Origin: a virus | Length of the DNA: 64,000 bases | Direction: 5' to 3' (one strand) | Virus record (IMG/VR): IMGVR_UViG_3300021471_000006 | Coordinates: 1 to 64,000 of that record | Shown: positions 21,716 through 40,993 of the stretch, one piece after another | How positions within the stretch are numbered: the first letter of the stretch is position 1 | How the letters are laid out: the number at the start of each line of letters is the position of its first letter | Program-made: the position numbers and the translations under genes | The notes under the pieces: model-generated | The model's input: the letters and a program-made list of their open reading frames with translations, nothing else | Told to the model about the DNA's origin: nothing | The model's database searches: none

Positions 21716-22756
21716 TTAAGCGTCTGTGAACAGACCTAAGCATATAGCCTTTTCATTAATTCTGGTCATTTTATACCAGGCATCAAGTAAGACTTTATGC
21801 ACTCTCTCATCATCTAATGTCACAACTTTAACTTTAGCTTTCTCTTTCCATACTATACCAGCTGCTGCTGAAGGGTCAATCATGTAAGCAAAGTGTCCTG
21901 CTGCACCCCAGTTACCCCTATTTGGGTAATCTGAATCTGCTGCAACTGTTGCTGCACTTACTAATGTTGATACTTCAATAACACAACCAACATATTCTTC
22001 AATAACACCACGTCTAACGACTGATGGTGAACCAAATTCTGCTGCGTTTGTGAACTGGCTAGATTTTAAGAGTTGCTTAAATTGTGTCGGATGTATAAAC
22101 AAAACTGCTTCTCCAGGCTTTTTTGCAAAATCCATTTCTTGCAGTCTAATTTTCATGTCAACTAACTTGTCAACATCTATGACATCTCCTGCAGCCAATG
22201 AACCTTTACCACTTGCAACAGCAGTATGGTCTGCGACTGTGGAACCGCCATATATTGCGCCTGCAGCCGAACTTCCGACGGTAGCGTTCTCTAGTAAGTT
22301 GTTTGCATCAGTCTCGATTGTGTTCAAATACTGTCTAACCAATTGCTTGTGTGCCATCTCGATTATAGAAACTCTTGTAGCACTTGCAGTTTCAAAAGAA
22401 ATGCTTGCACCACCAAGTTTAACATCGGCTGACGTTAAGCTAACTGTTATGTTATCAGCAGTATCGAATTTTGTCAATACTCTTGCAACACCCTCTGCGC
22501 TACCAGTTCTTCCGCCCATCAGGTTTACATCCCCGATTTTCGGAATGACAATTGTAACATCATTATTTCCCATTAAGTCATTAAACTCTAGGAAATATTT
22601 TGACAGTACTCTATCTGGTTGTGCGTCAAACACGATTCTTTCACTCCAAGTTGACCCCATGATGGAACCAATTCCACCTGTCTGGGAACCCCAACCTGAA
22701 GAACCAATCATGGTAACGCCAGTATCCAATTGTTCTGGTTCTTTTATTCCACTCAT
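21716..22756 (-). CDS. Major capsid protein (HK97 fold)
   Basis: 346 aa downstream of protease and scaffold; VLFIHPTQFKQL, GVIEEYVGCVIEVS and TIVIPK motifs as in N4-gp56/P22-like coat proteins. Confidence 0.9.
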   Translation of the reverse strand: MSGIKEPEQLDTGVTMIGSSGWGSQTGGIGSIMGSTWSERIVFDAQPDRVLSKYFLEFNDLMGNNDVTIVIPKIGDVNLMGGRTGSAEGVARVLTKFDTADNITVSLTSADVKLGGASISFETASATRVSIIEMAHKQLVRQYLNTIETDANNLLENATVGSSAAGAIYGGSTVADHTAVASGKGSLAAGDVIDVDKLVDMKIRLQEMDFAKKPGEAVLFIHPTQFKQLLKSSQFTNAAEFGSPSVVRRGVIEEYVGCVIEVSTLVSAATVAADSDYPNRGNWGAAGHFAYMIDPSAAAGIVWKEKAKVKVVTLDDERVHKVLLDAWYKMTRINEKAICLGLFTDA

Positions 22757-24603: not shown

Positions 24604-24917
24604 ATTTCATCAAGTCTATCAAAATTACTGTGATTAATTTTCTCCTTTATTTTATTATGTAGTTTCTCTATAGTTGTTTTAGACAGATTCTTGTTTCCAC
24701 TTGCATAAAACCTATGCAATAAAACATGTACCAGTAATAACTGGTTCTGTGTTAGTTTTTCTATATTTAATGATTCATCGATATAAATATGGTCTGACGA
24801 AGACGAATCTTCGCCAGACATACTCAGTGCAGGTGAGACAGATGGCTTAGAGCCATCCACACCAAGTATCGTATTTAATTTATTGATTAAATTAATGGTT
24901 TTTTCGTCCCCAGTCAT
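24600..24917 (-). CDS. Hypothetical protein
   Basis: 105 aa, overlaps both neighbours (ATGA coupling). Confidence 0.55.
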   Translation of the reverse strand: MTGDEKTINLINKLNTILGVDGSKPSVSPALSMSGEDSSSSDHIYIDESLNIEKLTQNQLLLVHVLLHRFYASGNKNLSKTTIEKLHNKIKEKINHSNFDRLDEI

Positions 24918-26332
24918 TTTTCCAACCTATTAATTTGTGAAAACGGATTTGTTTTTGCCTTTGTCTTTTCTCCAGCCTGTGACCCTGCAGCTTTGCCTGG
25001 GGAAGCAGGGTGCCATGCAGCCATATCAGATTTTTTTAAATCTGCTTCTATTCCCTGAAGTTTCTTTAGTTTGTCTTCAGACAATGTTCTAAGTCCAATC
25101 ATCTCTCTTGCTTCATTGAGAGTAATGATTCCAGAACCAAAAAGTTCTAGTGCTGACCTTGCCATTAGGCTAGCGTCTTCAGCAACATCTCCAAATACTA
25201 ATCTAGGAGCTTCAAAACCCTGTAACTCTCCATATTCTTTAAATATGTTATAAAAAAAGTCTGAAAGACTTTGTTGGTCACTTGCTATAGATGTATAAAA
25301 GTGCCTTGTAAGTACTACTCCTTCTGCCCTGTTTGAATTATCGCTCTCTCCAAGTAAAACTGATTTTGGAACTCCAAAAGTGGCAACCACTGCATCTAAA
25401 AAATATGCTGCATATTCATTGAAATTTTGGTTTCCTGGAGACATGAATTCAATTTTCATATCTTGTGGCACGAATATTTGGTCTCTGCCATTAATTCTGC
25501 CTAAAATGTGTCCCCAAAGTGCAATTTGTGAGGGCGATTTTGTATTACAAATACCAACAATAAGCGGATTAGCTGCTTTTATTGCAGCTTCTGCTGCTGA
25601 ATACTCCATATTCATAAGCCTTACTATTGTAGAGTATCCGGGCTGAATAATACTTAGACCAGTAAACTCATCTCCAAGAGTATTAAACTTCATATGAGCT
25701 ATAAGTTTCTTGTCTACATCCTTCTCTACTTCTTTGCCGTTCTTATCTAAATAGTGTTGAACGTACCCAACAGGCTGTTTGGTTTTTGAATCTATTATTA
25801 TTCTGCCTGTTTTCTCATCTTTCTTAAAAGATAAAGTGAGAGGATGAACATGTTTTAGCCCCAATATTTTATTTCCTTTTAAATTATATACTTTCTCTAA
25901 GAACCCGTCTCCGGCTATATATGAATTTACAGCAACTTGCCAGAACAGATTCTTACCACCACTCTTTTCTATCAATTCTTTACAAGCCTTTACTCCTTTC
26001 TCGTCTTCTCCAACTATTTCATATCCCTTGGAAATAATTGTATCTGCTCTAATATTAATTGCCCTAGCTACAAATTGGTTAGTAAGATACAACGTAAAAA
26101 GTTGCTTGGTTGTTTTTTTAACCTTACTTACGCCTTCACCCGCACCATGTTTAGTCGTAGTGAGTGCAATTGCACTAGGATTTGTGAGTATTTGTTTTAA
26201 TCTTTCTGTTTTTTGTCTCTCCAGAATTTCTTGTGCCGCCAATGCTTGTTCTGTAAGTTCTTCCTCAAGACTTTCCTCTGAGGGTTCGCCCTGCTCTATA
26301 ATTTCATTGAGTTTTGTTAATTCTTTAGCCAT
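24914..26332 (-). CDS. Portal protein
   Basis: 472 aa; FVARAINIRA, GDGFLE, GLSIIQP, FGVPKSVLLG and GIITLNEAREMIGL motifs. Confidence 0.92.
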   Translation of the reverse strand: MAKELTKLNEIIEQGEPSEESLEEELTEQALAAQEILERQKTERLKQILTNPSAIALTTTKHGAGEGVSKVKKTTKQLFTLYLTNQFVARAINIRADTIISKGYEIVGEDEKGVKACKELIEKSGGKNLFWQVAVNSYIAGDGFLEKVYNLKGNKILGLKHVHPLTLSFKKDEKTGRIIIDSKTKQPVGYVQHYLDKNGKEVEKDVDKKLIAHMKFNTLGDEFTGLSIIQPGYSTIVRLMNMEYSAAEAAIKAANPLIVGICNTKSPSQIALWGHILGRINGRDQIFVPQDMKIEFMSPGNQNFNEYAAYFLDAVVATFGVPKSVLLGESDNSNRAEGVVLTRHFYTSIASDQQSLSDFFYNIFKEYGELQGFEAPRLVFGDVAEDASLMARSALELFGSGIITLNEAREMIGLRTLSEDKLKKLQGIEADLKKSDMAAWHPASPGKAAGSQAGEKTKAKTNPFSQINRLEK

Positions 26333-26911: not shown

Positions 26912-27475
26912 ATGGCACAGAAAGGCAATATTTTAAAAGTAATAGAATTAGGAATACAAGATAGGGTTTTTGATGCGATGAAACAGCCTAGATTTTCTGT
27001 AGAGGCACTGACTAGAAAATTAAATTCGGAGGGCATAAGCATAACTGCACAGTCAATTAGAAAATTCATCAAAAAATCAAAGAAAGCACAACAAGAACTC
27101 ATTAAGAGAGATTTAAGAACATCTCACGAGATTCAAAAAATAACGCTTGACTATACTAAAACCATTAAGGCAATCTTAGACGAAGTTAAGGAAGTTAAAG
27201 ACAAAGCTAGAGAAGAGCAAGATATGGCTACATATAATCAGTTGGTTGGCAGACTGTATCAGGGATTGGAACTTATAGCTAAATTAACCGGCGATATAAA
27301 GCCTAGAGGTAGTACAGATATTAAGATAATATATAATGAAATAAACGCAAACATAGAGAAGAATATGAGAGATATAAAGAAGGAAATGTTTGAAGACCGT
27401 GTAATTGATGTAGATTATGAAATAGAGAAAGAAGATACTATAATTGCAAAAAGATTGAGAGAGGCCGACAACTAA
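26912..27475 (+). CDS. terS: Probable terminase small subunit
   Basis: N-terminal HTH-like region, helical hairpin and LELIAKLTGDI motif seen in archaeal-virus TerS; same operon as TerL. Confidence 0.55.
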   Translation: MAQKGNILKVIELGIQDRVFDAMKQPRFSVEALTRKLNSEGISITAQSIRKFIKKSKKAQQELIKRDLRTSHEIQKITLDYTKTIKAILDEVKEVKDKAREEQDMATYNQLVGRLYQGLELIAKLTGDIKPRGSTDIKIIYNEINANIEKNMRDIKKEMFEDRVIDVDYEIEKEDTIIAKRLREADN

Positions 27476-28377
27476 TGAAGAGAGTATTATTTCTTGGATA
27501 TGGAGAAGTTGGTAGTAGCTTATATAAACTTTATACTAACTTTAAATCATCTTATATTTTATATATAAAAGACCTTTATAGACAAAATATAAAGGCCAAC
27601 GAAAAAATAGACATATTAAATGTGTGTATACCGTATAATAACATGTTTATATCTTCTGTAGTAGATAATATACTAGAACATAAACCATATCTAACTATTA
27701 TACATAGTACTATACCATTATATACTACTGAAAAGGTGTATGAGGCTGTTAATACTGTATCAAGAACATTGATGGTTCACTCGCCTATTATGGGCGTACA
27801 TCCACATCTTACAGAAAGCATAAAAACTTTTATAAAAATGGTTGGAGGAATAAACGACATATCTGCAACTACAGCTATGGAACATCTCACAGATATTGGA
27901 ATTACTGTAGTAAAGTTTAATAGTTCTAGAGAAACAGAAATGACAAAATTACTTAGTACCACATATTATGCATGGAATATAGTATTTATGAAAAAAGTGC
28001 ATGAACTGTGCGAGAAACTAGAACTGAATTTTGAGCAAGTATATACTATGTCAAATTTAATATATAACGACGGATATAAGATGATGGAAAAAGAAAATGT
28101 GATAAGACCGGTTCTTAAAAATATGCATAAAGGAATTGGCGGACACTGTCTTGTTGAGAACACGATTATATTAGATGAGAGAAATATGTTACCAGAAATT
28201 ACAAAGATTATATTAAATCAGGGGAAGAACTCAAATCTAAAATATAAAGACAGGGCGTGGCTATATTCAGAATATATTGGAAAAAACAAGAAAATTAAAA
28301 AAATAGGAGAGGAGTGTGGAGTATCTAGTGCAACTATTAGAAAATGGTTAAAAAAACTGTCAATTCCAAAAAAATGA
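27475..28377 (+). CDS. UDP-glucose/GDP-mannose dehydrogenase-family protein with a C-terminal HTH
   Basis: GYGEVG Rossmann motif, IIHST, EMTKLLSTTY, GIGGHCL (catalytic Cys); C-terminal KYKDRAWLYSEY...IGEECGVSSATIRKWL HTH. Confidence 0.8.
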   Translation: MKRVLFLGYGEVGSSLYKLYTNFKSSYILYIKDLYRQNIKANEKIDILNVCIPYNNMFISSVVDNILEHKPYLTIIHSTIPLYTTEKVYEAVNTVSRTLMVHSPIMGVHPHLTESIKTFIKMVGGINDISATTAMEHLTDIGITVVKFNSSRETEMTKLLSTTYYAWNIVFMKKVHELCEKLELNFEQVYTMSNLIYNDGYKMMEKENVIRPVLKNMHKGIGGHCLVENTIILDERNMLPEITKIILNQGKNSNLKYKDRAWLYSEYIGKNKKIKKIGEECGVSSATIRKWLKKLSIPKK

Positions 28378-28552
28378 AAGATAATAAAAAAGTTTTTTAT
28401 GGTAAATACAGGGGAAAAAGAATATACTCTAACAAGTATTGTATGATTGTAACTTTGGGCGGAAGACCAAGATATTTCACTGGAGCAGACAGAGGACAGC
28501 AAGTATTAAAAACTATGAAAGAAATAGACGATTATCTTGCAGGAAAAATAGA

Positions 28553-28930
28553 ATGATTTATAAGTGGGTTAGAGATTTGGTAGAGAAATTCACATTTGTT
28601 ACTAGAACTGAATTGTCTGGTGGAATGATATATATTTATTATAATAAAAATGGTAAAGAAAAGCGGAAGAAAATTCCATTAAGAGCCAACAAAACCAGGT
28701 TATTAAATACTATAGAAAAAATTAAAGAAGACATAAATTACTATGAGAATAGAGCAAAGATACTTAAGAAGGCTTTAAAAAAACAAGACCCTGGAGCCTT
28801 TGCATTCTCTGGTGATTGGAATGGTGAAGAATATGAGCGAAGAAAAAAGAGTGAAAGCAAAATTAGTCCACTTTCAAATAGTGGACGGAAATCAAGACGA
28901 GGTAAGAGCACTGGCAATAGCATTAAATGA
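28553..28930 (+). CDS. Hypothetical protein
   Basis: ATGA-coupled start at 28553 (MIYKWVRD...). Confidence 0.45.
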   Translation: MIYKWVRDLVEKFTFVTRTELSGGMIYIYYNKNGKEKRKKIPLRANKTRLLNTIEKIKEDINYYENRAKILKKALKKQDPGAFAFSGDWNGEEYERRKKSESKISPLSNSGRKSRRGKSTGNSIK

Positions 28931-29102
28931 CCTAAAGAAGAACTTGCCTTTTAATATGGAGTTTCTTGTAACCAACAATAGAATAGAACTGCACGACATA
29001 AGGCACTTAATTGACCAGTTATATGAATTGTATAAGAAGCAAAAAGAGTTAAGAAAAGAGAAAACATTTGGATTCAGAGAGAGAAAAAAGAAGAAAGGGT
29101 GA
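28833..29102 (+). CDS. Hypothetical protein
   Basis: GGTGA SD before MSEEKRVK... Confidence 0.5.
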   Translation: MSEEKRVKAKLVHFQIVDGNQDEVRALAIALNDLKKNLPFNMEFLVTNNRIELHDIRHLIDQLYELYKKQKELRKEKTFGFRERKKKKG

Positions 29103-29106
29103 GATT

Positions 29107-30180
29107 ATGTCTAAAAAACGTATTGGATTTCTGTCATATTTTGGCTTTCCACGAGGACTTGCTTACGGGACATTAATGTATTGCAAAATGCTTCAAGAAG
29201 ATTACGATATTTATATTCTTAAACAAGGATTGAATCCAATCTCAGAAGAATTTAAGTCAGTGAAAGTTAATATTACCGAATATCCAGAATATATAGTAGA
29301 TAAAAAGTTCTTCACTAACTGGATTAAAGAGAATAAACTTGATGCGGTAGTATTTAATGAATATAAACAATGGACTAACGAACCAGATAACTTGGTGCAG
29401 GTAGCAAAATCTTTGGGAGCTAGAACTTATGGTTATCTAGTACTTGAAAAACTTGATAAAAAACAGACAGATGACTACGACAGAATTATAGCTCCCACAG
29501 TTTCTTATATGAGGTCTATGAGATTCAATAAAGTAAGACACTTTACTTATATTCCACATTCCATAGATTTGACGGAGTTTCCAAAAACTATGGAAGTCAA
29601 GCGGTCAGATAAGTTTACTTTCTTTCATCCTGCTGGATATGGAGGCTTTTTAGAAAGAAAGAATACGTCAAATGTTATAAGGGCATTTGAAGCTCTAGAT
29701 ACCACAGACGCAAAACTAATTATTACAACTCAAAAAAAACTGGAACCCGTAAAAGTACCTAATGGCGTTGAACTGATTTCAAGAAATCTATCTAGAAAAG
29801 AATTAATTGAGATTTATTACAAATCAGACGCAGTAGTTCTGCCCAGTAAATGGGAAACAGTTGGATTTCCTATTCTAGAAGCTCTTGCGGCAGGAAAACC
29901 AGTGATTACAACTAATGTGCCTCCTATGAACGAGTTTATAAGAGTTGGTCTAAATGGTTATTTATGTGGAGCAGATTTCGTAACATATCCAGAAATAAAA
30001 ATAAAGGCGGCAGAAGTGGGAATGCATCCCATAAAGGTTAATATGGAGAATATGATGAACAAAGATTTATATCCAATGTTATCAAGAAACTCAAGATATA
30101 TAGCAGAAAAGATATATGATTTAGAGAAAAATAAAAAATATTTCTTGGAGTTTTTAAAGAAGGACTTAAAATGTTACTAG
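29107..30180 (+). CDS. Glycosyltransferase family 4
   Basis: DAVVLPSKWETVGFPILEALAAGKPVITTNVPPMNE. Confidence 0.92.
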   Translation: MSKKRIGFLSYFGFPRGLAYGTLMYCKMLQEDYDIYILKQGLNPISEEFKSVKVNITEYPEYIVDKKFFTNWIKENKLDAVVFNEYKQWTNEPDNLVQVAKSLGARTYGYLVLEKLDKKQTDDYDRIIAPTVSYMRSMRFNKVRHFTYIPHSIDLTEFPKTMEVKRSDKFTFFHPAGYGGFLERKNTSNVIRAFEALDTTDAKLIITTQKKLEPVKVPNGVELISRNLSRKELIEIYYKSDAVVLPSKWETVGFPILEALAAGKPVITTNVPPMNEFIRVGLNGYLCGADFVTYPEIKIKAAEVGMHPIKVNMENMMNKDLYPMLSRNSRYIAEKIYDLEKNKKYFLEFLKKDLKCY

Positions 30181-30374
30181 ATACAAAAACATCATTTCAG
30201 TGCGGAATGACTATAGGTCTAATATTTGGATTTATAGTGGGAGTAATAGTATGTATGCTATTTACTTAACTAAATAAAAATGAATGAAAATTATTGCCCA
30301 GAGTGTGGCTTTCCGGTAATAATAGTGGGCACAGTAGTCGTGTGTGTAAATGAACAATGCAATTTTAATACAAG

Positions 30375-31109
30375 GTGAAAATTATGGTAATGAAAAAAGC
30401 GACATTAGAATTTAATGTCAGCGAATTTGATGGAATGAATTTTATAATTACAAAGCCGGGTGAGATTATGCAATCTTTTTGGATTGGAGGAAAATACTAT
30501 GAACCAGAGATGATAGAGTTTATAAAAGATAATTACAAGGGCGGAATGTTTATAGACGTTGGTTCATGTATCGGAAATCACACTATGGCATTCTCTACTT
30601 TAGCCGATGGCGTCATTTCTTTTGAGCCAATACCGTTTGTCTGCTTTCATCAGGCAGCTAACTTATTTTTAAGTAGAATTAGAAATGTAGTTATTTATAA
30701 TGTCGGATTAAGTAATAAGAATGGAATATTGCGTGCAAATATTATTGGTCCCGAATGGTCTAATCTGGGAGGGGGCACGATACAAAAAAATGGAGAGATA
30801 AAAATTCCAGTTGTCAAGCTTGACAGTTTTAAGTTTAAGAATGTAAAACTTATGAAAATAGATGTAGAGGGGCATGAACTTAATGTTATTAAAGGCGGAA
30901 TGAAAACTATTAAGGAAAGCAAACCAGACTTATTTATAGAATGTAGCACTGAGAAAAGATTCAAAGAAATATACGATTATCTCCAGTCATTAAGAGTAGG
31001 ATATAAATTCTACGATAGAAAAGTATTTAATAATACGCCGACAATGTTATTTACTGTTCGTGACTTTGATAAATATAAATTAAGAGAAAGAGAAGGTGAA
31101 AAAAAGTGA
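30375..31109 (+). CDS. FkbM-family SAM-dependent methyltransferase (probable sugar O-methyltransferase)
   Basis: FIDVGSCIGNHT, VISFEP, KLMKIDVEGHELNVIKG. Confidence 0.9.
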   Translation: MKIMVMKKATLEFNVSEFDGMNFIITKPGEIMQSFWIGGKYYEPEMIEFIKDNYKGGMFIDVGSCIGNHTMAFSTLADGVISFEPIPFVCFHQAANLFLSRIRNVVIYNVGLSNKNGILRANIIGPEWSNLGGGTIQKNGEIKIPVVKLDSFKFKNVKLMKIDVEGHELNVIKGGMKTIKESKPDLFIECSTEKRFKEIYDYLQSLRVGYKFYDRKVFNNTPTMLFTVRDFDKYKLREREGEKK

Positions 31110-32095
31110 AAAATAAAAGAAAGGTTTTGATAACTGGCGCAAATGGTTTTGTGGGCTCTCATTTAATAGAATACATATTAAAAAACCATCCAGATTATAT
31201 AGTCTGTGCAGTTCACAGGTCGCATAGAAGTTCTATGAAGAATGTTGAACATATAAAAAGCGAGAGAGTAAAATGGATAGAGTGTGATTTAACTGACTCG
31301 CATAGTGTTGAACAGTTATTTTTAAAAGACAGATACGAGAGAATTTTTCATCTGGCCGCACAATCATATGTTCCGATGTCATATAAGGCGCCCACACATA
31401 CTTTACAAGTGAACATAATTGGAACTGTAAATCTTTTTGAAGCGGTTAGAAAATATAATAGGCTTGCAATTGTAATGAACTGTTCATCTTCTGAAGTTTA
31501 CGGCCATTCAACAAGAATCCCTACCAGAGAAATAGAGCCTTTTGACCCAATTAGTCCATATGCTTTAAGCAAATGTGGACAAGATTTGGCGGGAAGAACA
31601 TATGCTAAGATGTATAATTTAAAAATAGTTACATCTAGAGCATTTACACACACTGGAGCTAGAAGAGGCGAGGTGTTTTTTGCAAGTTCTTTTGCAAAAC
31701 AAATAGCCGAGATAGAAGCCGGACTTAGAAAACCGATAGTATATGTTGGAAATTTAAAAAGCCAGAGAACTATAATGAATGTAAAAGATTGTGTAAGAGC
31801 TTATTGGATGCTCACTGAGAAAGGGATTCCTGGAGAAGCATATAATATCGGTGGAGAGGAAACTTGGAAAGTTGGAGATGTTTTAAACCATTTGATTAGT
31901 ATTTCCACAGTGAAAGATATAGAGTACAGAATTGATATAAACAGACTAAGACCAAAAGATGTAAATGTACAGAGACCAAGAATAATGAAATTTCAAGAAC
32001 TAACTGGCTGGAAACCAGAAATAAGTGTAGAAGATACGCTCCAAGAGTTATTAGACTATTGGAGAGAGGAAATCAAAAATGATGAAAACAATTAA
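31106..32095 (+). CDS. dmhA: GDP-sugar 4,6-dehydratase, DmhA-like (GDP-manno-heptose dehydratase)
   Basis: ITGANGFVGSH, FHLAAQS, CSSSEVYG, SPYALSK, THTGARRGEVFF..FAKQIA.IEAG and VGNL.S.RT motifs; the latter set resembles DmhA more than canonical Gmd. Confidence 0.75.
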   Translation: MKNKRKVLITGANGFVGSHLIEYILKNHPDYIVCAVHRSHRSSMKNVEHIKSERVKWIECDLTDSHSVEQLFLKDRYERIFHLAAQSYVPMSYKAPTHTLQVNIIGTVNLFEAVRKYNRLAIVMNCSSSEVYGHSTRIPTREIEPFDPISPYALSKCGQDLAGRTYAKMYNLKIVTSRAFTHTGARRGEVFFASSFAKQIAEIEAGLRKPIVYVGNLKSQRTIMNVKDCVRAYWMLTEKGIPGEAYNIGGEETWKVGDVLNHLISISTVKDIEYRIDINRLRPKDVNVQRPRIMKFQELTGWKPEISVEDTLQELLDYWREEIKNDENN

Positions 32096-32333
32096 ACATA
32101 TTGGAGACTTAATAAAATCTCTAGATGAAGAAAAACCTATAGCTATATTACTTATGGATATAGAGATGTATGAAACTGGAGATGGTAAAAAAATTTACTC
32201 ACTTCCTCCGGGACAAATAACAGACATTATAATACATATGTCAAAATTAGTTGATAAAAATATGGTAACTGGATTAATAATAGATAAAAAAGAGTTGAAA
32301 GCATTTTTAAATAGAGGTGAGACAGATGTCTAA
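32082..32333 (+). CDS. Hypothetical protein
   Basis: Coupled ORF in the glycan cluster. Confidence 0.5.
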   Translation: MKTIKHIGDLIKSLDEEKPIAILLMDIEMYETGDGKKIYSLPPGQITDIIIHMSKLVDKNMVTGLIIDKKELKAFLNRGETDV

Positions 32334-34602
32334 ATTTAGAGTTTCTACTGGAAATTGGATATGTACTCCAAAAGAAAGAAAGATAGTTAACGATATTTTA
32401 GATTCCGGCAAAATTTCAGAGGGTCCATATATGAAAAAATTTAGCAAACTGTGGGCAGATTATATTGGAACCCCATATTGTACTACTTTAAATTCTGGAA
32501 CTAGTGCATTGATTGTAGGACTTAGAGCCCTCAATTACAAATTGGGCAGATTTATAAAAGTGTTAACAACGCCGTTTACATATATAGCAACTGTGAACTC
32601 TATTTACCTCACTGGCAATACTCCAGTGTTCTGCGATATAGAAAGAGAAAGACTTGGATTAGACCCACAAGCAGTAGAAAGAAAACTACAAGAAGACCCA
32701 GAAATAGATGCAGTTTTATTAGTGCATATTATGGGAATCCCTTCTAGAGTAGATGAAATCTCAGATATTTGCAGAAAATATGGTGTTCTATTACTTGAAG
32801 ATAATTGTTTAGTTAAGGGCACTAAGATATTTGCTAATAAAACCCTAAAAAATATAGAAGATATGAAAAAAGGAGATTTGGTTTTAACTCATAAGGGAAG
32901 ATGGAAAAAGGTGTTGAGAGTATTTAAAAGAAAGATTAAAGATGACGTTATACATATTAAATTTTACTATAACAGAGAAGGAGTTAAGGCCACTAAAGAA
33001 CATCCATTTTATGTTTTAAGGGACGGAAAAAAGATATGGGCTAGAGCTGATGATTTAAGGCTATCTGATAAAATAATATATGCTAAAGAGAAGTTTGATA
33101 ATATATCTATAAAAAACGAAATTTCGTGGTTAGATGAAAATAACCAAAAAGAAGTAATAGTGCCAAATGAAGACTTTTATAAACTTTGTGGCCTATATAT
33201 AGCAGAAGGGCATACTTCCAAAAACGGAATAGTTTTTTCATTAAATGAAAATGAGAGGGATTTAGTAGATTTTATATTTAAATTTGCAAAGAATATAAAT
33301 AGGAGTGCTTGTGAAATAAATGATAAAAGAAATGGTGGAACTCAAGTAAAAATTCCATGCAGACCATTGGCTAACATATTTAAAAAATTGTTTGGACATG
33401 GTGCTAAGAATAAGAAAATACCAGATGGGTGGGAAAGTTTACCATCTAGGTATTTGTATTCATTATTAGAAGGATATTTACTTGGAGATGGTTACTTAAA
33501 CAAAAAAAGATTACACATAGCTACAGCATCTAAAAAACTTTATTCACAATTAATTAGAATTATGAATAATTTAAATATATTTACACAACTTTATGAAACA
33601 GAAGGAGAAGAAAGTATTATTAGAGGAAAAAAAGTTAAATCTGGCAGAATATATCATATACTATGTCAGGGAAATACTAAAGAAGAGTTATATAAGAACA
33701 TACATCAAGATTCATATAAGACTAGAAAATCTTTTGGAGATTATGATGACGAATATCTCTATATACCAATTAGAAGTCTAGATACCGTTTATTATGAAGG
33801 TTATGTCTATAATATAGAAGTAGAAGATGATAATTCGTATAGTTTACCAATGTGTACAACTCACAATTGTCAGGCTTATGGAACAGAATATAAGGGAAAG
33901 ATGTTAGGAAGTTATGGTCTTTGGAGTGCTTGTAGCTTTTTTATTGCACACACTATTCAAGTGTCTGAAATGGGAACGTTAAATACATATGATAGAACTT
34001 TATTCAGATATTTTGATAAGTTAAAGTCTAATGGAAGAACTGCAGCATTTGACAGAGAATTAGAGAAATATTTTGTAGAAAAAGTAGAAGAAGATAAAAG
34101 GGATTTACATCCTAGATATTATCATGATATGGTTAGTGGAAATTATAGAACTCAGGAGTTCTCTGCTGGAATAGCGTGTGCACAATTCGAGAAAATAGAT
34201 GAAATAATAAAAAAGAGAAACGAGAATGTAAAATATTTATTGGATAATTTAGTACCAAAATATGGGAACATATTACAGTTTCCAATATACGATGAAAAAA
34301 TCGCATATCTTGGATTTCCAATGGTAATAAAGAATCCAACAATTGAAAGAAGATGGATTAGAGAAGAATTTGAAAAAAAAGGCATAGAAACGAGACCTAT
34401 GTATGGTTGTCTGCCTCTTGACATGCCATCGTTTGAACATCTTAGAAACGAATATAAGATGAAACTTCCTGCATCAGAGGATATTGGTAGAAATGCGTGG
34501 TATATTGGGTGCCATCAATATCTAACCAAAAAAGACCTTGACTATATAATAAGTGTGTTTGATGAGGTACTTAAGAAACATGAGAGAGTGGCAAAAAAAT
34601 AG
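32326..34602 (+). CDS. DegT/DnrJ-fold PLP enzyme of the ColD/E1 (C3-dehydratase) type, containing an intein
   Basis: NSGTSAL, TTPFTYIAT, LLEDN|CQAYG; the PLP-lysine position reads SFFIAH (His, as in ColD/E1); ~404 aa after splicing. Confidence 0.8.
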   Translation: MSKFRVSTGNWICTPKERKIVNDILDSGKISEGPYMKKFSKLWADYIGTPYCTTLNSGTSALIVGLRALNYKLGRFIKVLTTPFTYIATVNSIYLTGNTPVFCDIERERLGLDPQAVERKLQEDPEIDAVLLVHIMGIPSRVDEISDICRKYGVLLLEDNCLVKGTKIFANKTLKNIEDMKKGDLVLTHKGRWKKVLRVFKRKIKDDVIHIKFYYNREGVKATKEHPFYVLRDGKKIWARADDLRLSDKIIYAKEKFDNISIKNEISWLDENNQKEVIVPNEDFYKLCGLYIAEGHTSKNGIVFSLNENERDLVDFIFKFAKNINRSACEINDKRNGGTQVKIPCRPLANIFKKLFGHGAKNKKIPDGWESLPSRYLYSLLEGYLLGDGYLNKKRLHIATASKKLYSQLIRIMNNLNIFTQLYETEGEESIIRGKKVKSGRIYHILCQGNTKEELYKNIHQDSYKTRKSFGDYDDEYLYIPIRSLDTVYYEGYVYNIEVEDDNSYSLPMCTTHNCQAYGTEYKGKMLGSYGLWSACSFFIAHTIQVSEMGTLNTYDRTLFRYFDKLKSNGRTAAFDRELEKYFVEKVEEDKRDLHPRYYHDMVSGNYRTQEFSAGIACAQFEKIDEIIKKRNENVKYLLDNLVPKYGNILQFPIYDEKIAYLGFPMVIKNPTIERRWIREEFEKKGIETRPMYGCLPLDMPSFEHLRNEYKMKLPASEDIGRNAWYIGCHQYLTKKDLDYIISVFDEVLKKHERVAKK
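32806..33867 (+). mobile_element. Intein with LAGLIDADG homing endonuclease (354 aa) in the PLP enzyme
   Basis: Starts CLVKGT, block B ATKEHPF, LAGLIDADG motifs GLYIAEG and GYLLGDG, ends VYNIEVEDDNSY...THN followed by Cys. Confidence 0.95.
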
Positions 34603-34692
34603 AAGAAAGAGACTCGAATATGAAGAAAAAGTAAGAGAATTAGAGATGGTAGAGAAAAAAATAGCTATGCTAAAAAAAGAGTTGAACAAAGA

Positions 34693-35775
34693 ATGAGAAT
34701 ACTTTATTTTGGGGGCGAGAGTGCCAATTTTGTTATAGAGACTTGCAATGCTTTATGTAGACAGGGACATAAAGTTACAGCTGTAGTACAGCAACTTGAC
34801 GAATATGATAAAGATAATCCAGTTCTGGAACATGAGAACCTAAGTAGAATAAATGTCGATTATGCAACAATGTTTAATCCAATTAGAATGAAGAATAGAT
34901 TAATAGCGGAATTTGCGAGAAAGAAATTCGATTTAATATTTGGTTCACATGCTCCAATAACTCCGGTATTACATGATTTGGCTAGAACATATGGATTGCC
35001 TTGGGGAGTTATGTTATTAGATATACCAACTCATACAATGAGAACCCAGCGCTGGAGAATGAAACAATGGAATTACTGGTTTCAGTTTTTAAGACAGGCA
35101 GATATAGTGGTTTTTAATAATACTATTGCAAGAGACGAATTTTATGCATATACTAGAAACTGGATTCCGGATGACCATATAATACATTATGGTACTTTTA
35201 GACCAAAAGAATATCGAGAGGCTGGAATAACAATAAGAGGCGATTATGTTCTCTCCATTTGCAGACTACATCCTATTAAGAACTGTAAAGTTATACCAAT
35301 GGCTTTAAATTTGTTAAATAGTGACTTAAAGTATATGGCCGTCGGAAGAGATGCTGGAGAATTAGAATTTATAAAAAACTATTGTAAAAAGAACAATATC
35401 TCTTTTGAATGGAGAGGCATAGTAACAGAGAAAGAAAAATGGGAGTTAATAAAAAACTGCTCAATGTTTATATATCCCCAAGATACAAAATATATTGGAG
35501 GACAGGCATGTTTAGAGGCCATGTGGGCTGGAAAGCCCGTATTGGCTAGTGACTATGGCGTATTAAGAGAATTATATGGAAATGCTGCCTTTTATTTTGA
35601 CCCAAAGAATATTGAAAATTTAGCAGAGAAAATAGCGTTTGTTAAGGCTGCAAAAATAAAAACATTAGAACCATTTCTTAGAGAAGGAGTGGAACAATCA
35701 GAAAAAATAGGAAGTTATGATAAAATGGGAGAACTGCTCTCAAATTTATTCAAAAAATATTTAAAAAAGGAGTGA
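34693..35775 (+). CDS. Glycosyltransferase family 4
   Basis: ICRLHPIKN, LEAMWAGKPVLASD, YGNAAFYFDP. Confidence 0.9.
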   Translation: MRILYFGGESANFVIETCNALCRQGHKVTAVVQQLDEYDKDNPVLEHENLSRINVDYATMFNPIRMKNRLIAEFARKKFDLIFGSHAPITPVLHDLARTYGLPWGVMLLDIPTHTMRTQRWRMKQWNYWFQFLRQADIVVFNNTIARDEFYAYTRNWIPDDHIIHYGTFRPKEYREAGITIRGDYVLSICRLHPIKNCKVIPMALNLLNSDLKYMAVGRDAGELEFIKNYCKKNNISFEWRGIVTEKEKWELIKNCSMFIYPQDTKYIGGQACLEAMWAGKPVLASDYGVLRELYGNAAFYFDPKNIENLAEKIAFVKAAKIKTLEPFLREGVEQSEKIGSYDKMGELLSNLFKKYLKKE

Positions 35776-35780
35776 TAAAG

Positions 35781-36317
35781 ATGAGAAAAATCTTATTGAT
35801 AATAACAATGTTATTGTTATTGGTTTCTACTGTCTCTGCAGGAACATTAAGACTTACCAGAAGTTCTTTAAATGAATGTGAGCGCATGAAAAGAGTTCAA
35901 GAATACTATGGTAGAGATTGTGGAGATTGTTATGAAAGAGAAATACAGAACAATATTGTATATTCTATGATATGTGAAGTAGAAAATTATTGCTGGCACA
36001 GTTGTACTCCGGAAGATAATGGTTGTCAGGGCAGATACTGGAGAGAGTGCAAAAATAAAACGGGACCGACTGGCTGTGTTAACTGGAAGGGATTATCTAA
36101 AGTAGTTGGTAAATGTGGAATAGAATGTAAAGAAGATAGTGATTGCCCTGAAGAATGGCAAATATGCGGATATGTTCAAGGAAAAGCTAATATGTGTAAA
36201 GGAACTCCACCATCACCAACAGACCCAATAGTAGTGCCAGAAAAATATTCCTCTTTTTGGGAGAGATTGTTGGCGTTTATTAGATTTATAATGTCTGGTT
36301 TTAGGAGCTGGGAATGA
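35781..36317 (+). CDS. Secreted Cys-rich protein with a C-terminal amphipathic anchor
   Basis: Signal peptide MRKILLIITMLLLLVSTVSA; 14 Cys; Pro-rich linker; ends SSFWERLLAFIRFIMSGF. Confidence 0.7.
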   Translation: MRKILLIITMLLLLVSTVSAGTLRLTRSSLNECERMKRVQEYYGRDCGDCYEREIQNNIVYSMICEVENYCWHSCTPEDNGCQGRYWRECKNKTGPTGCVNWKGLSKVVGKCGIECKEDSDCPEEWQICGYVQGKANMCKGTPPSPTDPIVVPEKYSSFWERLLAFIRFIMSGFRSWE

Positions 36318-36919
36318 AAGTAGTAATTTTAGCAGGAGGACGAGGTGAGAGGCTTAGGCCCTTAACAGATAGGGTGCCCAAGCCACTTTTAATGGTAGGA
36401 AAAAAGCCTTTCATATTTCATCTAGTTGAAAATTTAAGAAGACGGGGATTTACAGAACAGACCATATTAGCAGGATATTTGGGAGATAAGATTTTTGAGG
36501 CATTTTTATCAGAAAATCCAAATATAAGTTGGGATGTAAAAATTGAATCTCGTCCACTTGGAACTGCTGGTGCACTAAAATTAATAGAAAATGAATTTAA
36601 AGATGAGAGATTTATAGTTATGAATGGAGATACTTGGTTTGATTTTAATCTTTGGAAATTAATAGAGGAGCACAAGAAAAACGAATATTTGATTACAGTC
36701 GCAGAAGTGAACGGTGTTGACAGTGGAGTTGCAGTTATAGAAAGAGAGGCGCTAGAATTAATTAAAGAAGGAGATTCATTAAACAAAGACCTCTATCCAT
36801 TGCTTGAAGAATGGAAAATGTTAAAAAGAGTTGAAGTAGATGGAGAATTCTTCGATATTGGAGATTCTCTAAAAGCATACAAAAAATTCAGAGAGTGGAA
36901 GGATGTTATAATAAAATGA
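36314..36919 (+). CDS. hddC: D-glycero-alpha-D-manno-heptose 1-phosphate guanylyltransferase-like nucleotidyltransferase
   Basis: VILAGGRGERLRPLTDRVPKPL, PLGTAGAL, MNGD, FFDIG; adjacent to hddA/gmhA/gmhB. Confidence 0.8.
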   Translation: MKVVILAGGRGERLRPLTDRVPKPLLMVGKKPFIFHLVENLRRRGFTEQTILAGYLGDKIFEAFLSENPNISWDVKIESRPLGTAGALKLIENEFKDERFIVMNGDTWFDFNLWKLIEEHKKNEYLITVAEVNGVDSGVAVIEREALELIKEGDSLNKDLYPLLEEWKMLKRVEVDGEFFDIGDSLKAYKKFREWKDVIIK

Positions 36920-37926
36920 TAATAAGAGCAAGAGCGCCCGTTAGAATTAGTTTCGCGGGCGGAGGAACAGATGTAAGCCCGTATTGTGAAGAAAAGGGAG
37001 GCTGTGTAGTTAATGCAGCTATTAACAAATATGCTTATGCTACACTTACAACAACTAAAGACAAAGTCATTGTCGAGTCTTCAGATTTCAACCAAACTCA
37101 AGAGTTCAGAAATATAACAGATATTTATTATAACGGACAGCTTGACTTGCTTAAGGCTGTAATAAAACACTATGGAAAAGAGAATATCAAACTTTTTCTC
37201 AGAAGTGATACTCCACCCAGAAGTGGTCTTGGAAGTAGCGCATCTGCGTTTGTTGCGGCTATGGGAGTATTTGAGCATCTTAAAAATGAAAACTCTATGA
37301 CAAACTATGAGATAGCAGAATTAGCCTATAAACTCGAAAGAGAAGAATTAAAAAACTATGGAGGCAGGCAAGACCAGTATGCAGCAGTGTTTGGAGGAAT
37401 AAATTTTATGGAGTTCAAAGGAAATGATTTTGTAAAAATAAGTCCATTAAAATTATCCAAAGATGTATTGCTTGAGCTCGAGAAAAATCTAGTATTAGTA
37501 AACATTGGAGAAAGAAGGGATTCTGGAGACATCTTAATTGACCAGACTGCTAGATATGAAAAAGGCAAAGAGAAAGTTATAAATGCTATGGATAGAAGCA
37601 AGGAACTTGCAATAGAAGTTAAGAAGGCTCTTATTAAAGGAGACTTGAATAGATTTGGAAATTTACTTCACGAAGCATGGGAAGAAAAAAAGAAATACAG
37701 TAAAATGATATCTAATTTGAAAATAGATTATCTATATAAAATTGCTAGAAATGCTGGAGCCATAGGTGGAAAAGTCTCTGGTGCTGGCGGCGGCGGACAT
37801 ATGATATTTTATTGCAAACCAAATACGGAACAACTTGTATCAAAGACATTAGAAGCTGCAGGATGCCGAGTTGTATCATTTAGTTTCGATACGAATGGAT
37901 TACAGTCTTGGGAGATTAGAAAATGA
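36917..37926 (+). CDS. hddA: D-glycero-alpha-D-manno-heptose 7-phosphate kinase (GHMP family)
   Basis: RAPVRISFAGGGTD, PPRSGLGSS, GGRQDQYAA, GGKVSGAGGGG. Confidence 0.93.
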
Positions 37927-38501
37927 ATAATAAAATCAAAAATCTAATTAAAGAGTCTATAAGAGTTAAAAAGATTCTCCTAAAAGAAGAAATTATTTCT
38001 AATATTAAAACTGTTACAGATGTAATTATAGATGCATTAATCAATGGAAGAAAAGTGCTTATTTTTGGTAATGGTGGCTCAGCTGCAGATGCACAACATT
38101 TTGCAGCAGAATTGTCTGGAAAATTTAAAAAAATTAGAAGAGCTCTTCCAGCAATGGCTTTAACAGTTAATCCAAGTGTGGTAACTGCTATAGCTAATGA
38201 TTTTGGATATGAACGAGTATTTGAAAGGCAGATTGAGGCACATGCTAAATCTGGAGATATAGTAATAGGCATATCGACCTCTGGTAATTCAAATAATGTA
38301 AATCTTGCACTACAGAGTGCTAATAATTTAGGATGTTTTACAGTAGGATTGATAGGCAAAGATGGAGGAAAAATGAAAAGTTTTTGTGATTTAGAAATAA
38401 CTGTTCCAACATCTGATACTCCAAGAATACAGGAAGCACATATTTTAATAATACATATAATATGTGAACTAATAGAAAACAAGATGTTTAAAAATGAGTA
38501 A
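37923..38501 (+). CDS. gmhA: Phosphoheptose (sedoheptulose-7-phosphate) isomerase
   Basis: FGNGGSAADAQHFAAEL, TAIANDFGY, ISTSGNS, TPRIQEAH. Confidence 0.97.
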   Translation: MNNKIKNLIKESIRVKKILLKEEIISNIKTVTDVIIDALINGRKVLIFGNGGSAADAQHFAAELSGKFKKIRRALPAMALTVNPSVVTAIANDFGYERVFERQIEAHAKSGDIVIGISTSGNSNNVNLALQSANNLGCFTVGLIGKDGGKMKSFCDLEITVPTSDTPRIQEAHILIIHIICELIENKMFKNE

Positions 38502-38694
38502 TGAACAAATAAAGAAAATCCCTACAACTGTAACATATAAAATAATTAGAAAAGAGAGACTCATTACTCCCCAAAATAATATTCTAGAGGAGAAGGAGCT
38601 AACTATAGAGGCAGAATCTTCAACAAGAGCTGCTGTCCTATATGAAGAGTTTAAAGACGAGGTATTTAAAAAATGCAAGATAAAATCAAAGTAG
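38494..38694 (+). CDS. Hypothetical protein
   Basis: 66-aa coupled ORF between gmhA and gmhB. Confidence 0.45.
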   Translation: MSNEQIKKIPTTVTYKIIRKERLITPQNNILEEKELTIEAESSTRAAVLYEEFKDEVFKKCKIKSK

Positions 38695-39164
38695 TGTTTT
38701 TAGATAGAGATGGAACAATAAATTATGATGACGGATATGTTTATAAAGTTGAAGACCTTAAACTTATGCCATACGTAATAAGAGGTCTACAGTTACTTCA
38801 AGAGAAAGGATACAAACTTGTAATTACTACAAATCAGCCAGGAATAGGCTATGGATATTATACTAAAAAAGAGTTTGAAGAATATATGGACTCGCTTCAA
38901 GAAAAACTATTAAAACATGGAATAAGTTTTTTTGATGTGTTATATTGTCCACATACTAAAGAAGATGAATGTGATTGTAGAAAACCTAAAACGGGAATGG
39001 TAGACAGATTTTTAAAAAACAATAATGTAGACATAAAAAATTCTTGGGTAATAGGAGATAGACTTAGTGACATTGAGTTTGCAAAAAATTTGGGGTGTAA
39101 GAGTGTTCAAATAATAAGTCTACTTACAGCCGCTAATATGATTATACATGGTGAGTTAAGATGA
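38673..39164 (+). CDS. gmhB: D,D-heptose 1,7-bisphosphate phosphatase (HAD)
   Basis: FLDRDGTIN, TNQPGIG, CPH...CDCRKPKTGM, IGDRLSD. Confidence 0.95.
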   Translation: MQDKIKVVFLDRDGTINYDDGYVYKVEDLKLMPYVIRGLQLLQEKGYKLVITTNQPGIGYGYYTKKEFEEYMDSLQEKLLKHGISFFDVLYCPHTKEDECDCRKPKTGMVDRFLKNNNVDIKNSWVIGDRLSDIEFAKNLGCKSVQIISLLTAANMIIHGELR

Positions 39165-40240
39165 AAATACTAATGCTAGGATACTTTGCAGATAACCAAA
39201 CGGGCATATATATAATGAATAATCTGAAAGAATATGCTTCAGATGTCGCTGCAGTAGACATAAGAAGAATAGTTCAAGAAATAGGAAGTGGAGAAAGTCA
39301 AGATATAATACTAGAAGAGATAGACGACCTCAAAATCAATCCAGATATAATTTTAGTTCTTAAAGGTCTTGAACTGGCTCCAGATACAATTGAAAAACTA
39401 AAACAAAAGTTTCCTAAAGCAAAAATTGTTAACTGGATGTTTGATAAGTTTATAGGAGGTATACCAGTATGGGAGAATGAAAAATATAAAGAAGTTATAA
39501 AACTTTATGATATGTTCTTCTGCAGTCTAAAGGGTGTTGCTGATAGACTAAAAAACATTGGATTTGATAATGTATACTGGATGCCCGAGGCAGCAGACGA
39601 GAATTTTCATGGAAGAACATATATGAATCATTATCAAAAACAGAAATATGGAGATGATGTGGCATTTATAGGAACTTTAGGTCTAGTTAAGCTGCATCCA
39701 AATAGATTACCAATACTAAATAAAATAGGAAAAGAGGGTTTTAGACTAAAAATATGGGGCAATGTAATAGGAGAATGGAAGAATATACCAAGAGATGTAA
39801 GAAGATTTCATATGCAAGAGACAGCAATAAATATAGGGCATTCAAAAGTAGTACAGTCTACTTTAATAAATTTATCAATTGACCAAGACCCAGAACTAGA
39901 ACTTGGACAATCTGCTAGATTATATAGAATAATGTGTGCGGGCGGTTTTGTGCTGTCTACTGCCACAAAAGGTCTAGAGAAGATGTTTAAGATAAATGAA
40001 TCCAAAACTGCTCCAATTACCGAAGATTTAGATTTTGTCGTCTTTTATGATTTAGACGACTTAGTAGATAAGTTAGATTATCTACTAGAACAGAATGATT
40101 TAAGAGAGAAAATTGCAGAAAATGGAAGAAAGAAAGTGTTAGAAAAACACACTTTCAAAACACGATGTAAAGAATTATTAGAGGTGATTAAAGGTGAAAC
40201 CAAGGAATACCTTATCCCAGAAAGCGAAAAAAGAACTTGA
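39161..40240 (+). CDS. CgeB-like (Glyco_trans_1_2) glycosyltransferase
   Basis: DVAFIG, RLYRIMCAGGFVLS, IAENGRKKVLEKHTF..R. Confidence 0.85.
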   Translation: MKILMLGYFADNQTGIYIMNNLKEYASDVAAVDIRRIVQEIGSGESQDIILEEIDDLKINPDIILVLKGLELAPDTIEKLKQKFPKAKIVNWMFDKFIGGIPVWENEKYKEVIKLYDMFFCSLKGVADRLKNIGFDNVYWMPEAADENFHGRTYMNHYQKQKYGDDVAFIGTLGLVKLHPNRLPILNKIGKEGFRLKIWGNVIGEWKNIPRDVRRFHMQETAINIGHSKVVQSTLINLSIDQDPELELGQSARLYRIMCAGGFVLSTATKGLEKMFKINESKTAPITEDLDFVVFYDLDDLVDKLDYLLEQNDLREKIAENGRKKVLEKHTFKTRCKELLEVIKGETKEYLIPESEKRT

Positions 40241-40784: not shown

Positions 40785-40993
40785 AAATTATGCCAAATGT
40801 AATGCCATGCGGCCACAACGATGTGTGGATGTTTAGAGTCAGAGATAGAGGACGTGTATACAGATATTGCTTAAAATGTCTATTTGACAAAACAGGTATG
40901 GAAGATGTATACTCGAAACCAACATCAGTAGAAACTGCAGTAAAGCCTAAAGTAAAAGAAGATAAATTAAAAAAGAAAAAATATAAGAAATGA
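40781..40993 (+). CDS. Small Zn-binding hypothetical protein
   Basis: PCGH...YCLKC. Confidence 0.45.
   Translation: MKIMPNVMPCGHNDVWMFRVRDRGRVYRYCLKCLFDKTGMEDVYSKPTSVETAVKPKVKEDKLKKKKYKK

Follow-up and report, generated by a model that had tools for sequence, protein, structure and literature searches.

A Sugar Island with a Predicted GDP-3,6-Dideoxy-Heptose Pathway in an Uncultured Tailed Virus

IMGVR_UViG_3300021471_000006 is a virus record of 109,485 bp which is classed as linear in IMG/VR and is approximately 77% complete. The first 64 kb of the record (64,000 nt, the whole stretch analyzed here and termed the window) contain a sugar island at positions 27475–40240. The island is a co-directional, translationally coupled sugar module of a tailed virus. 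It encodes GmhA, HddA, GmhB and an HddC-like nucleotidyltransferase, together with a short-chain dehydrogenase/reductase (SDR) that resembles GDP-heptose 4,6-dehydratases and a DegT-family pyridoxal 5′-phosphate (PLP) enzyme that displays the cofactor-site histidine of 3-dehydratases. The island is probably a nucleotide-sugar and glycosylation module owned by the virus and making GDP-3,6-dideoxy-4-keto-heptose. Homology and gene linkage point to this biosynthetic core, which is proposed with moderate confidence. A preliminary description of the window had named the four heptose genes, a DmhA-like 4,6-dehydratase, a PLP enzyme, an FkbM methyltransferase and three glycosyltransferases, and all of these are borne out by the family matches given below.

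Organization of the island

Late genes, including those of the major head protein (positions 21716–22756) and the portal (positions 24914–26332), are on the minus strand, and all genes are on the plus strand from position 26479. The plus strand order is a TerS-like (small terminase-like) helix-turn-helix (HTH) protein at positions 26912–27475, the sugar island, and the large terminase (TerL) at positions 40990–45051. All island genes described below are on the plus strand. The GC content is even, 30–36%, and the heptose genes are not distinct in base composition.

Three glycosyltransferases are encoded, i.e. two of the GT4 type and one of the Glyco_trans_1_2 type. GT4a is at positions 29068–30180 (PF00534, E-value = 2.7e-18) and GT4b at positions 34693–35775 (PF00534, PF13439). 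The third, a CgeB-like glycosyltransferase at positions 39161–40240 (PF13524, E-value = 1.3e-20), is the last gene of the island and adjoins the terminase. Stop/start overlaps join GT4b, an open reading frame (ORF) of 181 amino acids (aa), the nucleotidyltransferase, HddA and GmhA, and likewise join GmhB and the last glycosyltransferase. The genes overlap by 1–25 bases through the heptose block, which indicates an operon. An open frame of about 58 codons at window positions 38497–38672, at the GmhA/GmhB junction, occupies the sole sizeable gap in the block.

The four heptose supply genes

The GmhA sedoheptulose-7-phosphate isomerase is encoded at positions 37923–38501. It scores 206.9 bits with NF010546 and 203.7 bits with TIGR00441 (cut-off 209.45), i.e. 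at or just below the curated equivalog cut-offs. The HddA-type GHMP kinase is at positions 36895–37926 and matches NF049969 over positions 1–338 of 338 with an E-value of 1.5e-79, although the score is below the curated NCBIfam cut-off (600). The next family is fucokinase, at 100 bits. The ranking of profiles shows that the enzyme is of the GHMP-family heptose-7-phosphate 1-kinase type and not of the PfkB HldA type.

The sequence at positions 38673–39164 encodes a GmhB-type HAD-IIIA heptose-1,7-bisphosphate 7-phosphatase, which scores 155.6 bits with NF006506 (vs a cut-off of 178) and 126.7 bits with TIGR00213. It displays the DxDxT motif, as DRDGT, and the zinc motif CPH...CxC, as CPH...CDC. 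The fourth gene, at positions 36314–36919, encodes an HddC-like sugar-1-phosphate nucleotidyl(guanylyl)transferase of 201 aa (PF00483, E-value = 1.4e-23). Its top match among solved structures is the Yersinia HddC (5xhw/6jq8, E-value = 1e-21), followed by mannose-1-phosphate guanylyltransferases. Against NCBIfam the HddC model gives 71.5 bits (cut-off 300), and the MurU and archaeal GlmU-type models rank above it. The assignment as HddC leans partly on the position of the gene in the operon.

The closest HddA homologues (43–62% identity) are on non-viral metagenome contigs, and all four heptose genes are present in 11 of the 52 loci that are at least 5 kb long. These 11 loci also show that the tblastn test employed is capable of detecting GmhB. 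Named HddA homologues at 55–68% identity are all archaeal, i.e. Altiarchaeota, Aenigmatarchaeota, Woesearchaeota and "archaeon", and carry the JGI name heptose-7-phosphate kinase. Most likely the heptose quartet came from an archaeal host and was inserted after GT4b, ahead of the last glycosyltransferase, as a lineage-specific acquisition.

The DmhA-like dehydratase

The SDR is encoded at positions 31106–32095. Its class was judged by ranked scores with structures in the PDB, by scores with the NCBIfam Gmd model where the Gmd proteins of related viruses served as controls, and by a FastTree phylogeny. Among solved structures the SDR scores highest with 7US5, the GDP-heptose 4,6-dehydratase of Campylobacter jejuni (236.9 bits); Rmd (2pk3) gives 171 bits and Gmd structures about 121 bits or less. 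The CSSSEVYG, SPYxxSK and THxGxRR motifs are common to the SDR and 7US5. With the Gmd model TIGR01472 the SDR scores 160 bits, vs 313 and 320 bits for the SDRs of two related viruses, which are true Gmd proteins. Grouping with Gmd or Rmd, coupled with acceptance of GDP-mannose alone, had been named in the preliminary description as a finding that would speak against a heptose substrate; at the sequence level the SDR groups with neither.

The SDR family is large, with members of about 50% identity in bacteria, archaea and viruses. At 47 of the 80 best loci in cellular genomes (46–53% identity), an HddA- or GmhA-like gene is located no more than 10 kb from the SDR homologue. A Nitrosotalea metagenome-assembled genome (MAG; locus L112) has the operon gmhB-hddC-hddA-gmhA-SDR-second SDR and a Nitrosopumilaceae MAG has the order hddA-gmhA-SDR-gmhB; several archaeal loci are contiguous operons. 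The FastTree phylogeny comprises 164 family members labelled by gene neighborhood; its support values are solely Shimodaira-Hasegawa-like, and of its three outgroup rows one is very long-branched. In this tree the window SDR pairs with the SDR of the related contig L097 described below (69% identity, support 100), and the rows that follow by path belong to Methanosarcinales, Aenigmatarchaeota, Woesearchaeota and Promethearchaeota. From homology and gene linkage the SDR is predicted to prefer GDP-heptose to GDP-mannose.

The DegT-family enzyme and its intein

The DegT-family enzyme, dependent on pyridoxamine 5′-phosphate (PMP) or PLP, is encoded by an ORF of 761 residues. The ORF is composed of an N-extein at positions 32317–32805 (PF01041, residues 19–169), which ends in ...LLLEDN, a class 1 LAGLIDADG intein of 354 aa at positions 32806–33867 (residues 164–517; PF14890, PF14528 and Hint_2), and a C-extein at positions 33868–34602 that contains the motif SFFIAH. 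The length after splicing is 407 aa. An 84 aa ORF at positions 32079–32333, which is taken from the ORF list and gave no match in searches of Pfam and PHROG, is situated between the SDR and PLP genes.

Pfam matches and the translation show that the intein has Cys1, a TKEH block B, two LAGLIDADG motifs, a C-terminal His-Asn and a +1 Cys. By these blocks it appears to be an intact class 1 intein and splicing is predicted. The insertion point is two residues past the ED motif that is conserved in the DegT fold. The intein is missing from the L097 homologue, which is 63% identical.

The N- and C-exteins were analyzed separately. In the cofactor loop, SFFIAHTIQ, a His is located at the position of the Schiff-base Lys. 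HMMER aligns this His to His220 of E1 (3bcx, with the H220K mutant deposited as 3bb8) and also to the first His in the SHH motif that ColD (2gms) displays. The C-extein gives its best score with E1, 70 bits, and 46–51 bits with ColD. As a control, the second DegT enzyme of a related virus, G005, is of the Lys type; the enzymes of the relatives are otherwise of the His type. Thus the PLP enzyme of the preliminary description is a member of the DegT family in which His replaces the PLP Lys, as in the 3-dehydratases ColD and E1. The window enzyme has in common with ColD and E1/RfbH the DegT fold, this His and a native Cys directly after the (E/D)N motif.

The E1-type [2Fe-2S] cysteine motif was not found; the stretch DCYCAPGCDNTC, which is aligned to the E1 loop, is Cys-free in the window enzyme. 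Since the iron-sulfur cysteines are lacking, the enzyme differs from E1 in that it would be unable to use the E3 reductase partner, and an E3-dependent E1 mechanism is excluded; a ColD-like mechanism is the one we infer. The DegT enzyme is therefore, within reason, predicted to be a ColD-like C3-dehydratase. Its presumed substrate is a GDP-heptose, whereas the substrates of ColD (GDP-4-keto-6-deoxymannose) and E1/RfbH (CDP-6-deoxy-4-hexulose) are hexoses.

Related viruses and exchange of cassettes

Eight relatives were compared, i.e. seven IMG/VR contigs whose head protein is 65–84% identical to that of the window, plus L097. The latter (CAYVYZ010000002.1, 65,191 bp) is binned in an "uncultured Planctomycetia" MAG, and its head protein (77%), portal (61%) and TerL (about 60%) show that it is a virus of the window lineage, which makes mis-binning very probable. 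HddA has no match in the 1.7-Mb Planctomycetia MAG that holds L097.

The sugar island is at the same site in all eight relatives, and GT4a and the CgeB-like glycosyltransferase frame it in each relative whose stretch extends there. GT4a is 31–55% identical in all eight and the CgeB-like glycosyltransferase 33–52% identical in the relatives. The frame glycosyltransferases are approximately as conserved as the portal (31–55% vs 43–62% identity).

The middle of the island is variable. G002 has a true Gmd and a His-type DegT enzyme. G004 has the same pair with an intein-bearing Gmd. G003 has a true Gmd, a His-type DegT enzyme and an FkbM gene, and its slot between GT4b and the last glycosyltransferase is occupied by an HldC-like (rfaE domain II) gene (L011:322–747). 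G005 has a His-type and a Lys-type DegT enzyme and a radical-SAM-like gene, with no SDR match, and G001 has unrelated sugar genes and is without the PLP enzyme and GT4b. The middle of the L097 island has the order of the window, i.e. FkbM, a DmhA-like SDR (69% identity), an intein-free PLP enzyme (63%) and GT4b. The slot of the window's heptose genes contains in L097 a PfkB kinase (L097:13898–14881) with a match of 329 bits to the HldE heptose-7-phosphate kinase domain. The slot from GT4b to the last glycosyltransferase thus repeatedly holds heptose-related cargo. The L097 sequence at 10948–12825 encodes a His-type PLP enzyme fused to an N-terminal class I S-adenosylmethionine (SAM) methyltransferase.

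All six relatives with a His-type PLP gene also carry GT4b, and G001, which has no PLP gene, is without it. Because of this co-occurrence GT4b is the best candidate for transfer of the deoxygenated sugar. Searches for HddA in all eight related records, and for GmhA in five of them, gave no match; the four-gene GDP-heptose set therefore appears specific to the window virus.

Inteins with LAGLIDADG domains are unusually many in the genome: two in TerL, one in the PLP enzyme and one in ribonucleotide reductase. Those of TerL are at approximately residues 243–660 and 941–1294. The TerL of every relative examined aligns contiguously over both sites and is hence intein-free. The Gmd of G004 (L005:1629–3692, minus strand) is 687 aa long and interrupted by an intein, which indicates that inteins entered different sugar genes of the lineage. 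In G002 the portal gene is split by about 1.2 kb (L003, approximately 5220–6450) that matches the window PLP intein with 25% identity over 290 residues, and this insert is probably an intein as well.

The proposal that the island makes GDP-3,6-dideoxy-4-keto-heptose has several points that weigh against it. L097 has the SDR and the PLP enzyme and no GDP-heptose genes, only the HldA-like PfkB kinase, and in G002, G003 and G004 the His-type enzyme is accompanied by a true Gmd, so that the SDR/PLP pair may act on a hexose. Heptose genes are lacking at most IMG/VR loci that have the window SDR family. The nucleotidyltransferase, HddA and GmhB all score under the curated NCBIfam cut-offs, and both the nucleotide (GDP) and the anomer are those that we infer. 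Finally, the encoded pathway stops at a reactive 4-keto sugar, without a reductase or epimerase.

An unlikely but plausible alternative is that two sugars are involved. The SDR and the His-type PLP enzyme would then turn GDP-mannose of the host into the precursor of a colitose-like 3,6-dideoxy-hexose, and the heptose genes would supply unmodified GDP-heptose to another glycosyltransferase. Consistent with this, the three relatives with the Gmd and His-type pair have no heptose genes, the L097 pair is likewise without GDP-heptose genes and HddA is missing at most viral loci of the SDR family. DmhA and WcbK take GDP-mannose as a poorer substrate. However, the window SDR scores 237 bits with the heptose dehydratase vs 121 bits with Gmd, and its score with the Gmd model is half that of the relatives' Gmd proteins. 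In addition, SDR homologues of archaea and bacteria directly adjoin gmhA/hddA, and the slot in L097 still holds a heptose-7-phosphate kinase homologue. A GDP-heptose substrate for the pair is thus preferred.

Other island proteins and the missing reductase

The first gene of the island, at positions 27475–28377, encodes a truncated NDP-sugar-dehydrogenase-like protein with a C-terminal HTH remnant. The match to TIGR03026 (E-value = 4.8e-15) covers only profile positions 98–302 of 413. The AlphaFold2 (AF2) model has a pLDDT of 83, and the top Foldseek matches are UDP-ManNAc and UDP-glucose dehydrogenases (query TM-score, TMq, 0.63–0.68) over the first two domains only. The C-terminal sugar-nucleotide-binding domain of UDP-glucose/GDP-mannose dehydrogenases is absent, as judged by profile, fold and the relatives. 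The GxGxxG motif and the catalytic Cys of GGHC are invariant in eight viruses, the central domain is kept, and the relatives' proteins end about 20 residues past the Cys. The last 55 or so residues of the window protein, where PHROG HNH-endonuclease matches span residues 246–299 (nt 28210–28377), are a homing-endonuclease HTH. In the relative represented by L007 (3803–5167, minus strand) the homologue continues in frame into an HNH endonuclease that is complete, and the HTH tail of the window protein looks like a decayed endonuclease fusion. The gene, listed as an NDP-sugar dehydrogenase in the preliminary description, is therefore real, but it encodes a truncated relative with two domains, which has no specific tie to a heptose pathway.

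No separate reductase was seen in the islands of the lineage members examined. In the 109-kb record there is one PF01370 match, which is the dehydratase, with no further adh_short match and no GFO-family match. PF00908, which was searched for a cupin C5 (or C3/C5) epimerase, has no match in this approximately 77% complete record and is positive in control genomes. The earlier remark that no C4-reductase or epimerase is visible in the window thus extends to the 109-kb record, as far as PF01370, adh_short, RmlC-type cupin and GFO searches are concerned.

The dehydrogenase-like protein might itself be the C4-ketoreductase. No further Rossmann-type oxidoreductase was recognized in the island apart from the SDR, the protein is conserved with the GxGxxG and Cys residues invariant, its gene directly adjoins the Gmd and PLP genes in G002, and the two-domain fold also resembles that of beta-hydroxyacid dehydrogenases. 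This assignment is nevertheless highly improbable. The protein is encoded by G001, where the PLP enzyme is lacking, and gave no match in the 48% complete G003 fragment, where a PLP enzyme is present; this co-occurrence pattern gives the candidate no comparative support. It is also without the sugar-nucleotide-binding domain, and we know of no ketoreductase in the dehydrogenase family.

It is very unlikely, though it would dispense with a reductase, that the pathway has a different ending in which the PLP enzyme transaminates C4, giving a 4-amino-4,6-dideoxy-heptose, or the SDR also reduces the 4-keto group. The examined relatives with a His-type PLP gene have no separate reductase in the island, the second-best solved relative of the SDR is the reductase Rmd, and the GMD of the chlorovirus PBCV-1 is a precedent for such reduction (PMC5408694). 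Set against this are the His at the Lys position, which marks the dehydratases ColD and E1, and the Lys that sugar aminotransferases, including the second DegT enzyme of G005, retain. The dehydratase motif SSSE, as in 7US5, is present in the SDR, and an adjacent second SDR at 29 of 51 IMG/VR loci with the SDR and a His-type PLP enzyme (see below) indicates that a separate reductase is usual. Removal of the C3 hydroxyl by the PLP enzyme is the preferred course.

The 181 aa ORF at positions 35772–36317 encodes an orphan Cys-rich protein, with an N-terminal signal/transmembrane segment (hydrophobic stretch at residues 1–19) and about 20 Cys residues, that is translationally coupled to GT4b and the HddC-like gene. 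It has no relative in Pfam, NCBIfam, PHROG, the PDB or Atlas and was not found in the related viruses. The protein was considered as the missing cupin epimerase and rejected by reason of the signal peptide, the Cys-rich body and the lack of Pfam, PDB and Atlas relatives.

The FkbM methyltransferase is at positions 30375–31109 (PF05050, E-value = 1.3e-15; TIGR01444, 80.7 bits with a cut-off of 37.7), and its homologues in G003 and L097 are 46% and 49% identical, respectively. Two small ORFs of 163 and 100 aa are in overlapping frames at positions 28439–29102; they are present in nearly all relatives (30–55% identity by tblastn), and the 163 aa sequence has no match in Pfam or PHROG. Transmembrane segments are lacking in all island enzymes and glycosyltransferases, and flippase, polymerase and oligosaccharyltransferase families have no match among the island ORFs scanned. 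Since the enzymes are soluble and these families show no match, assembly of the glycan in the cytoplasm is suggested, either on proteins directly or on a lipid carrier of the host.

Host affinity

Among the viruses of GenBank, only an Altiarchaeum virus gave a detectable match to the head protein (24% identity, E-value = 5e-6). The family B polymerase is closest to that of Halorubrum tailed virus 27 and then to those of T4-like cyanophages. The portal homologues (116 protein matches, including that of the window itself) carry no taxon or informative name for the host. The affinities of the head protein, polymerase and HddA, together with the richness in LAGLIDADG inteins, make an archaeal host likely, perhaps of the Altiarchaeota or DPANN. 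The window had been called that of an archaeal virus in the preliminary description; an affinity to archaeal viruses is plausible, and the archaeal host is a putative one.

Comparison with known systems

In C. jejuni HS:5 and HS:11 a 4,6-dehydratase, a C3-dehydratase dependent on PLP and L-glutamate, a C5-epimerase and a C4-reductase make GDP-3,6-dideoxy-heptoses (PMC10440746, PMC10680097). The C3-dehydratase, which requires PLP and L-glutamate, converts GDP-6-deoxy-4-keto-heptose to GDP-3,6-dideoxy-4-keto-heptose, and the finishing enzymes are a cupin C5-epimerase and an SDR C4-reductase (PMC10440746, PMC10680097). The window island resembles this system in that the SDR is of the same subfamily and the predicted C3-dehydratase is of the DegT family, has His where Lys would be and lacks an iron-sulfur cluster. 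Unlike the C. jejuni system, the island is without the cupin C5-epimerase and the C4-reductase, its PLP enzyme is only distantly related to the ColD-type enzymes and carries an intein, and it is located in a virus packaging module and not in a bacterial capsule locus.

A full heptose route in an archaeal virus had been considered unusual in the preliminary description, but heptose genes in viruses are less unusual than this suggests. Synechococcus phage SynMITS9220M01 (MT408532) has an HddA-like kinase (34% identity), a matching nucleotidyltransferase, a DmhA-like SDR (44%) and GmhA, and further genes of it are annotated as phosphatases, an ADP-heptose epimerase and another heptose kinase. In Caulobacter phage Cr30 (KF301602) an HddA-type kinase and the isomerase are present. 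Like the window virus, these cultured phages encode their own HddA-type kinase and GmhA, with genes for glycosyltransferases and for epimerase/dehydratase enzymes alongside; they differ in being bacterial myoviruses with no His-type PLP enzyme in the stretches examined. Their genes are only 29–44% identical to those of the window, which suggests that the acquisitions were independent. In the chloroviruses and giant viruses nucleotide-sugar enzymes and soluble glycosyltransferases are also virus-encoded, as with GMD/GMER and the glycosyltransferases of PBCV-1, and the GMD of PBCV-1 is a dehydratase that also carries out an NADPH-dependent reduction to GDP-D-rhamnose (PMC5408694). However, these are giant viruses of eukaryotes with hexose sugars and unrelated sets of glycosyltransferases.

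In IMG/VR, single-sequence scans with HddA or the SDR gave no close relatives, whereas alignment-based scans found at least 93 stretches with HddA-like kinases and at least 317 stretches with the window SDR family. Gene neighborhoods were counted at the 80 best loci of each family. A DegT neighbor is present at 51 of the 80 SDR loci and is of the His type in every case (51 of 51, mostly FSFYFGHHITT), and 29 of these 51 loci have an adjacent second SDR. All four supply genes were found in none of the 80 best HddA loci by the tblastn test. The pair of an SDR and a 3-dehydratase is common in uncultured viruses, where the usual annotation is Gmd plus aminotransferase. A search of the literature on phage-encoded phosphoheptose isomerase and on GDP-heptose in archaeal viruses found nothing specific.

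The chemistry and its occurrence in phages are thus already known, and the island adds detail and leaves existing understanding unchanged. What is particular here is the archaeal type of the virus, the cassette-swapping module within the packaging block and the lack of a reductase in the lineage islands examined.

Proposed pathway and significance

In the proposed pathway GmhA would isomerize sedoheptulose-7-phosphate, the HddA-type kinase would yield the alpha-1,7-bisphosphate and GmhB would take off the 7-phosphate. The SDR and the DegT enzyme would then strip the C6 and C3 hydroxyls of GDP-heptose. After splicing of the intein the DegT enzyme would remove the C3 hydroxyl in the manner of ColD, with PMP regenerated from an amino acid, and the product of this step would be GDP-3,6-dideoxy-4-keto-heptose. 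Reduction at C4, with or without epimerization at C5, may be provided by the host, by a second activity of the SDR or by a gene in the unrecovered 23% or so of the genome. The host is a candidate because archaeal cellular operons carry a second SDR. FkbM would probably O-methylate the sugar or glycan. The three soluble glycosyltransferases would build the glycan in the cytoplasm, where GT4b likely transfers the dideoxy sugar. A virus-encoded acceptor such as a virion protein is favored over the host surface, with low confidence, because the island is located between the TerS-like gene and TerL and the frame glycosyltransferases are conserved like the portal.

A wider proposal, distinctly unlikely as a whole, is that viruses of this lineage place rare 3,6-dideoxy sugars on their own virions, and that the sugar of the present virus is a methylated 3,6-dideoxy-heptose derived entirely from a central metabolite. 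The glycosyltransferase frame would be fixed and the cassettes swappable, and C4 reduction would proceed without a classical reductase, by a bifunctional SDR or the truncated dehydrogenase-like protein. The island would then be one for antigenic variation, similar to bacterial O-antigen loci.

If the proposed pathway is correct, a virus of a probably archaeal, uncultured host would make an activated deoxy-heptose from sedoheptulose-7-phosphate without a sugar pathway of the host. Virus-owned glycosylation, which is represented in chloroviruses, giant viruses and some phages, would then reach archaeal-type tailed viruses, and the island would offer a compact set of enzymes for GDP-heptose chemistry. 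The most useful new point is the comparative one, i.e. fixed glycosyltransferases, middles with Gmd or a DmhA-like SDR, a recurrent slot for heptose helper genes and no reductase in the islands examined, and this can be tested by expression of the enzymes.

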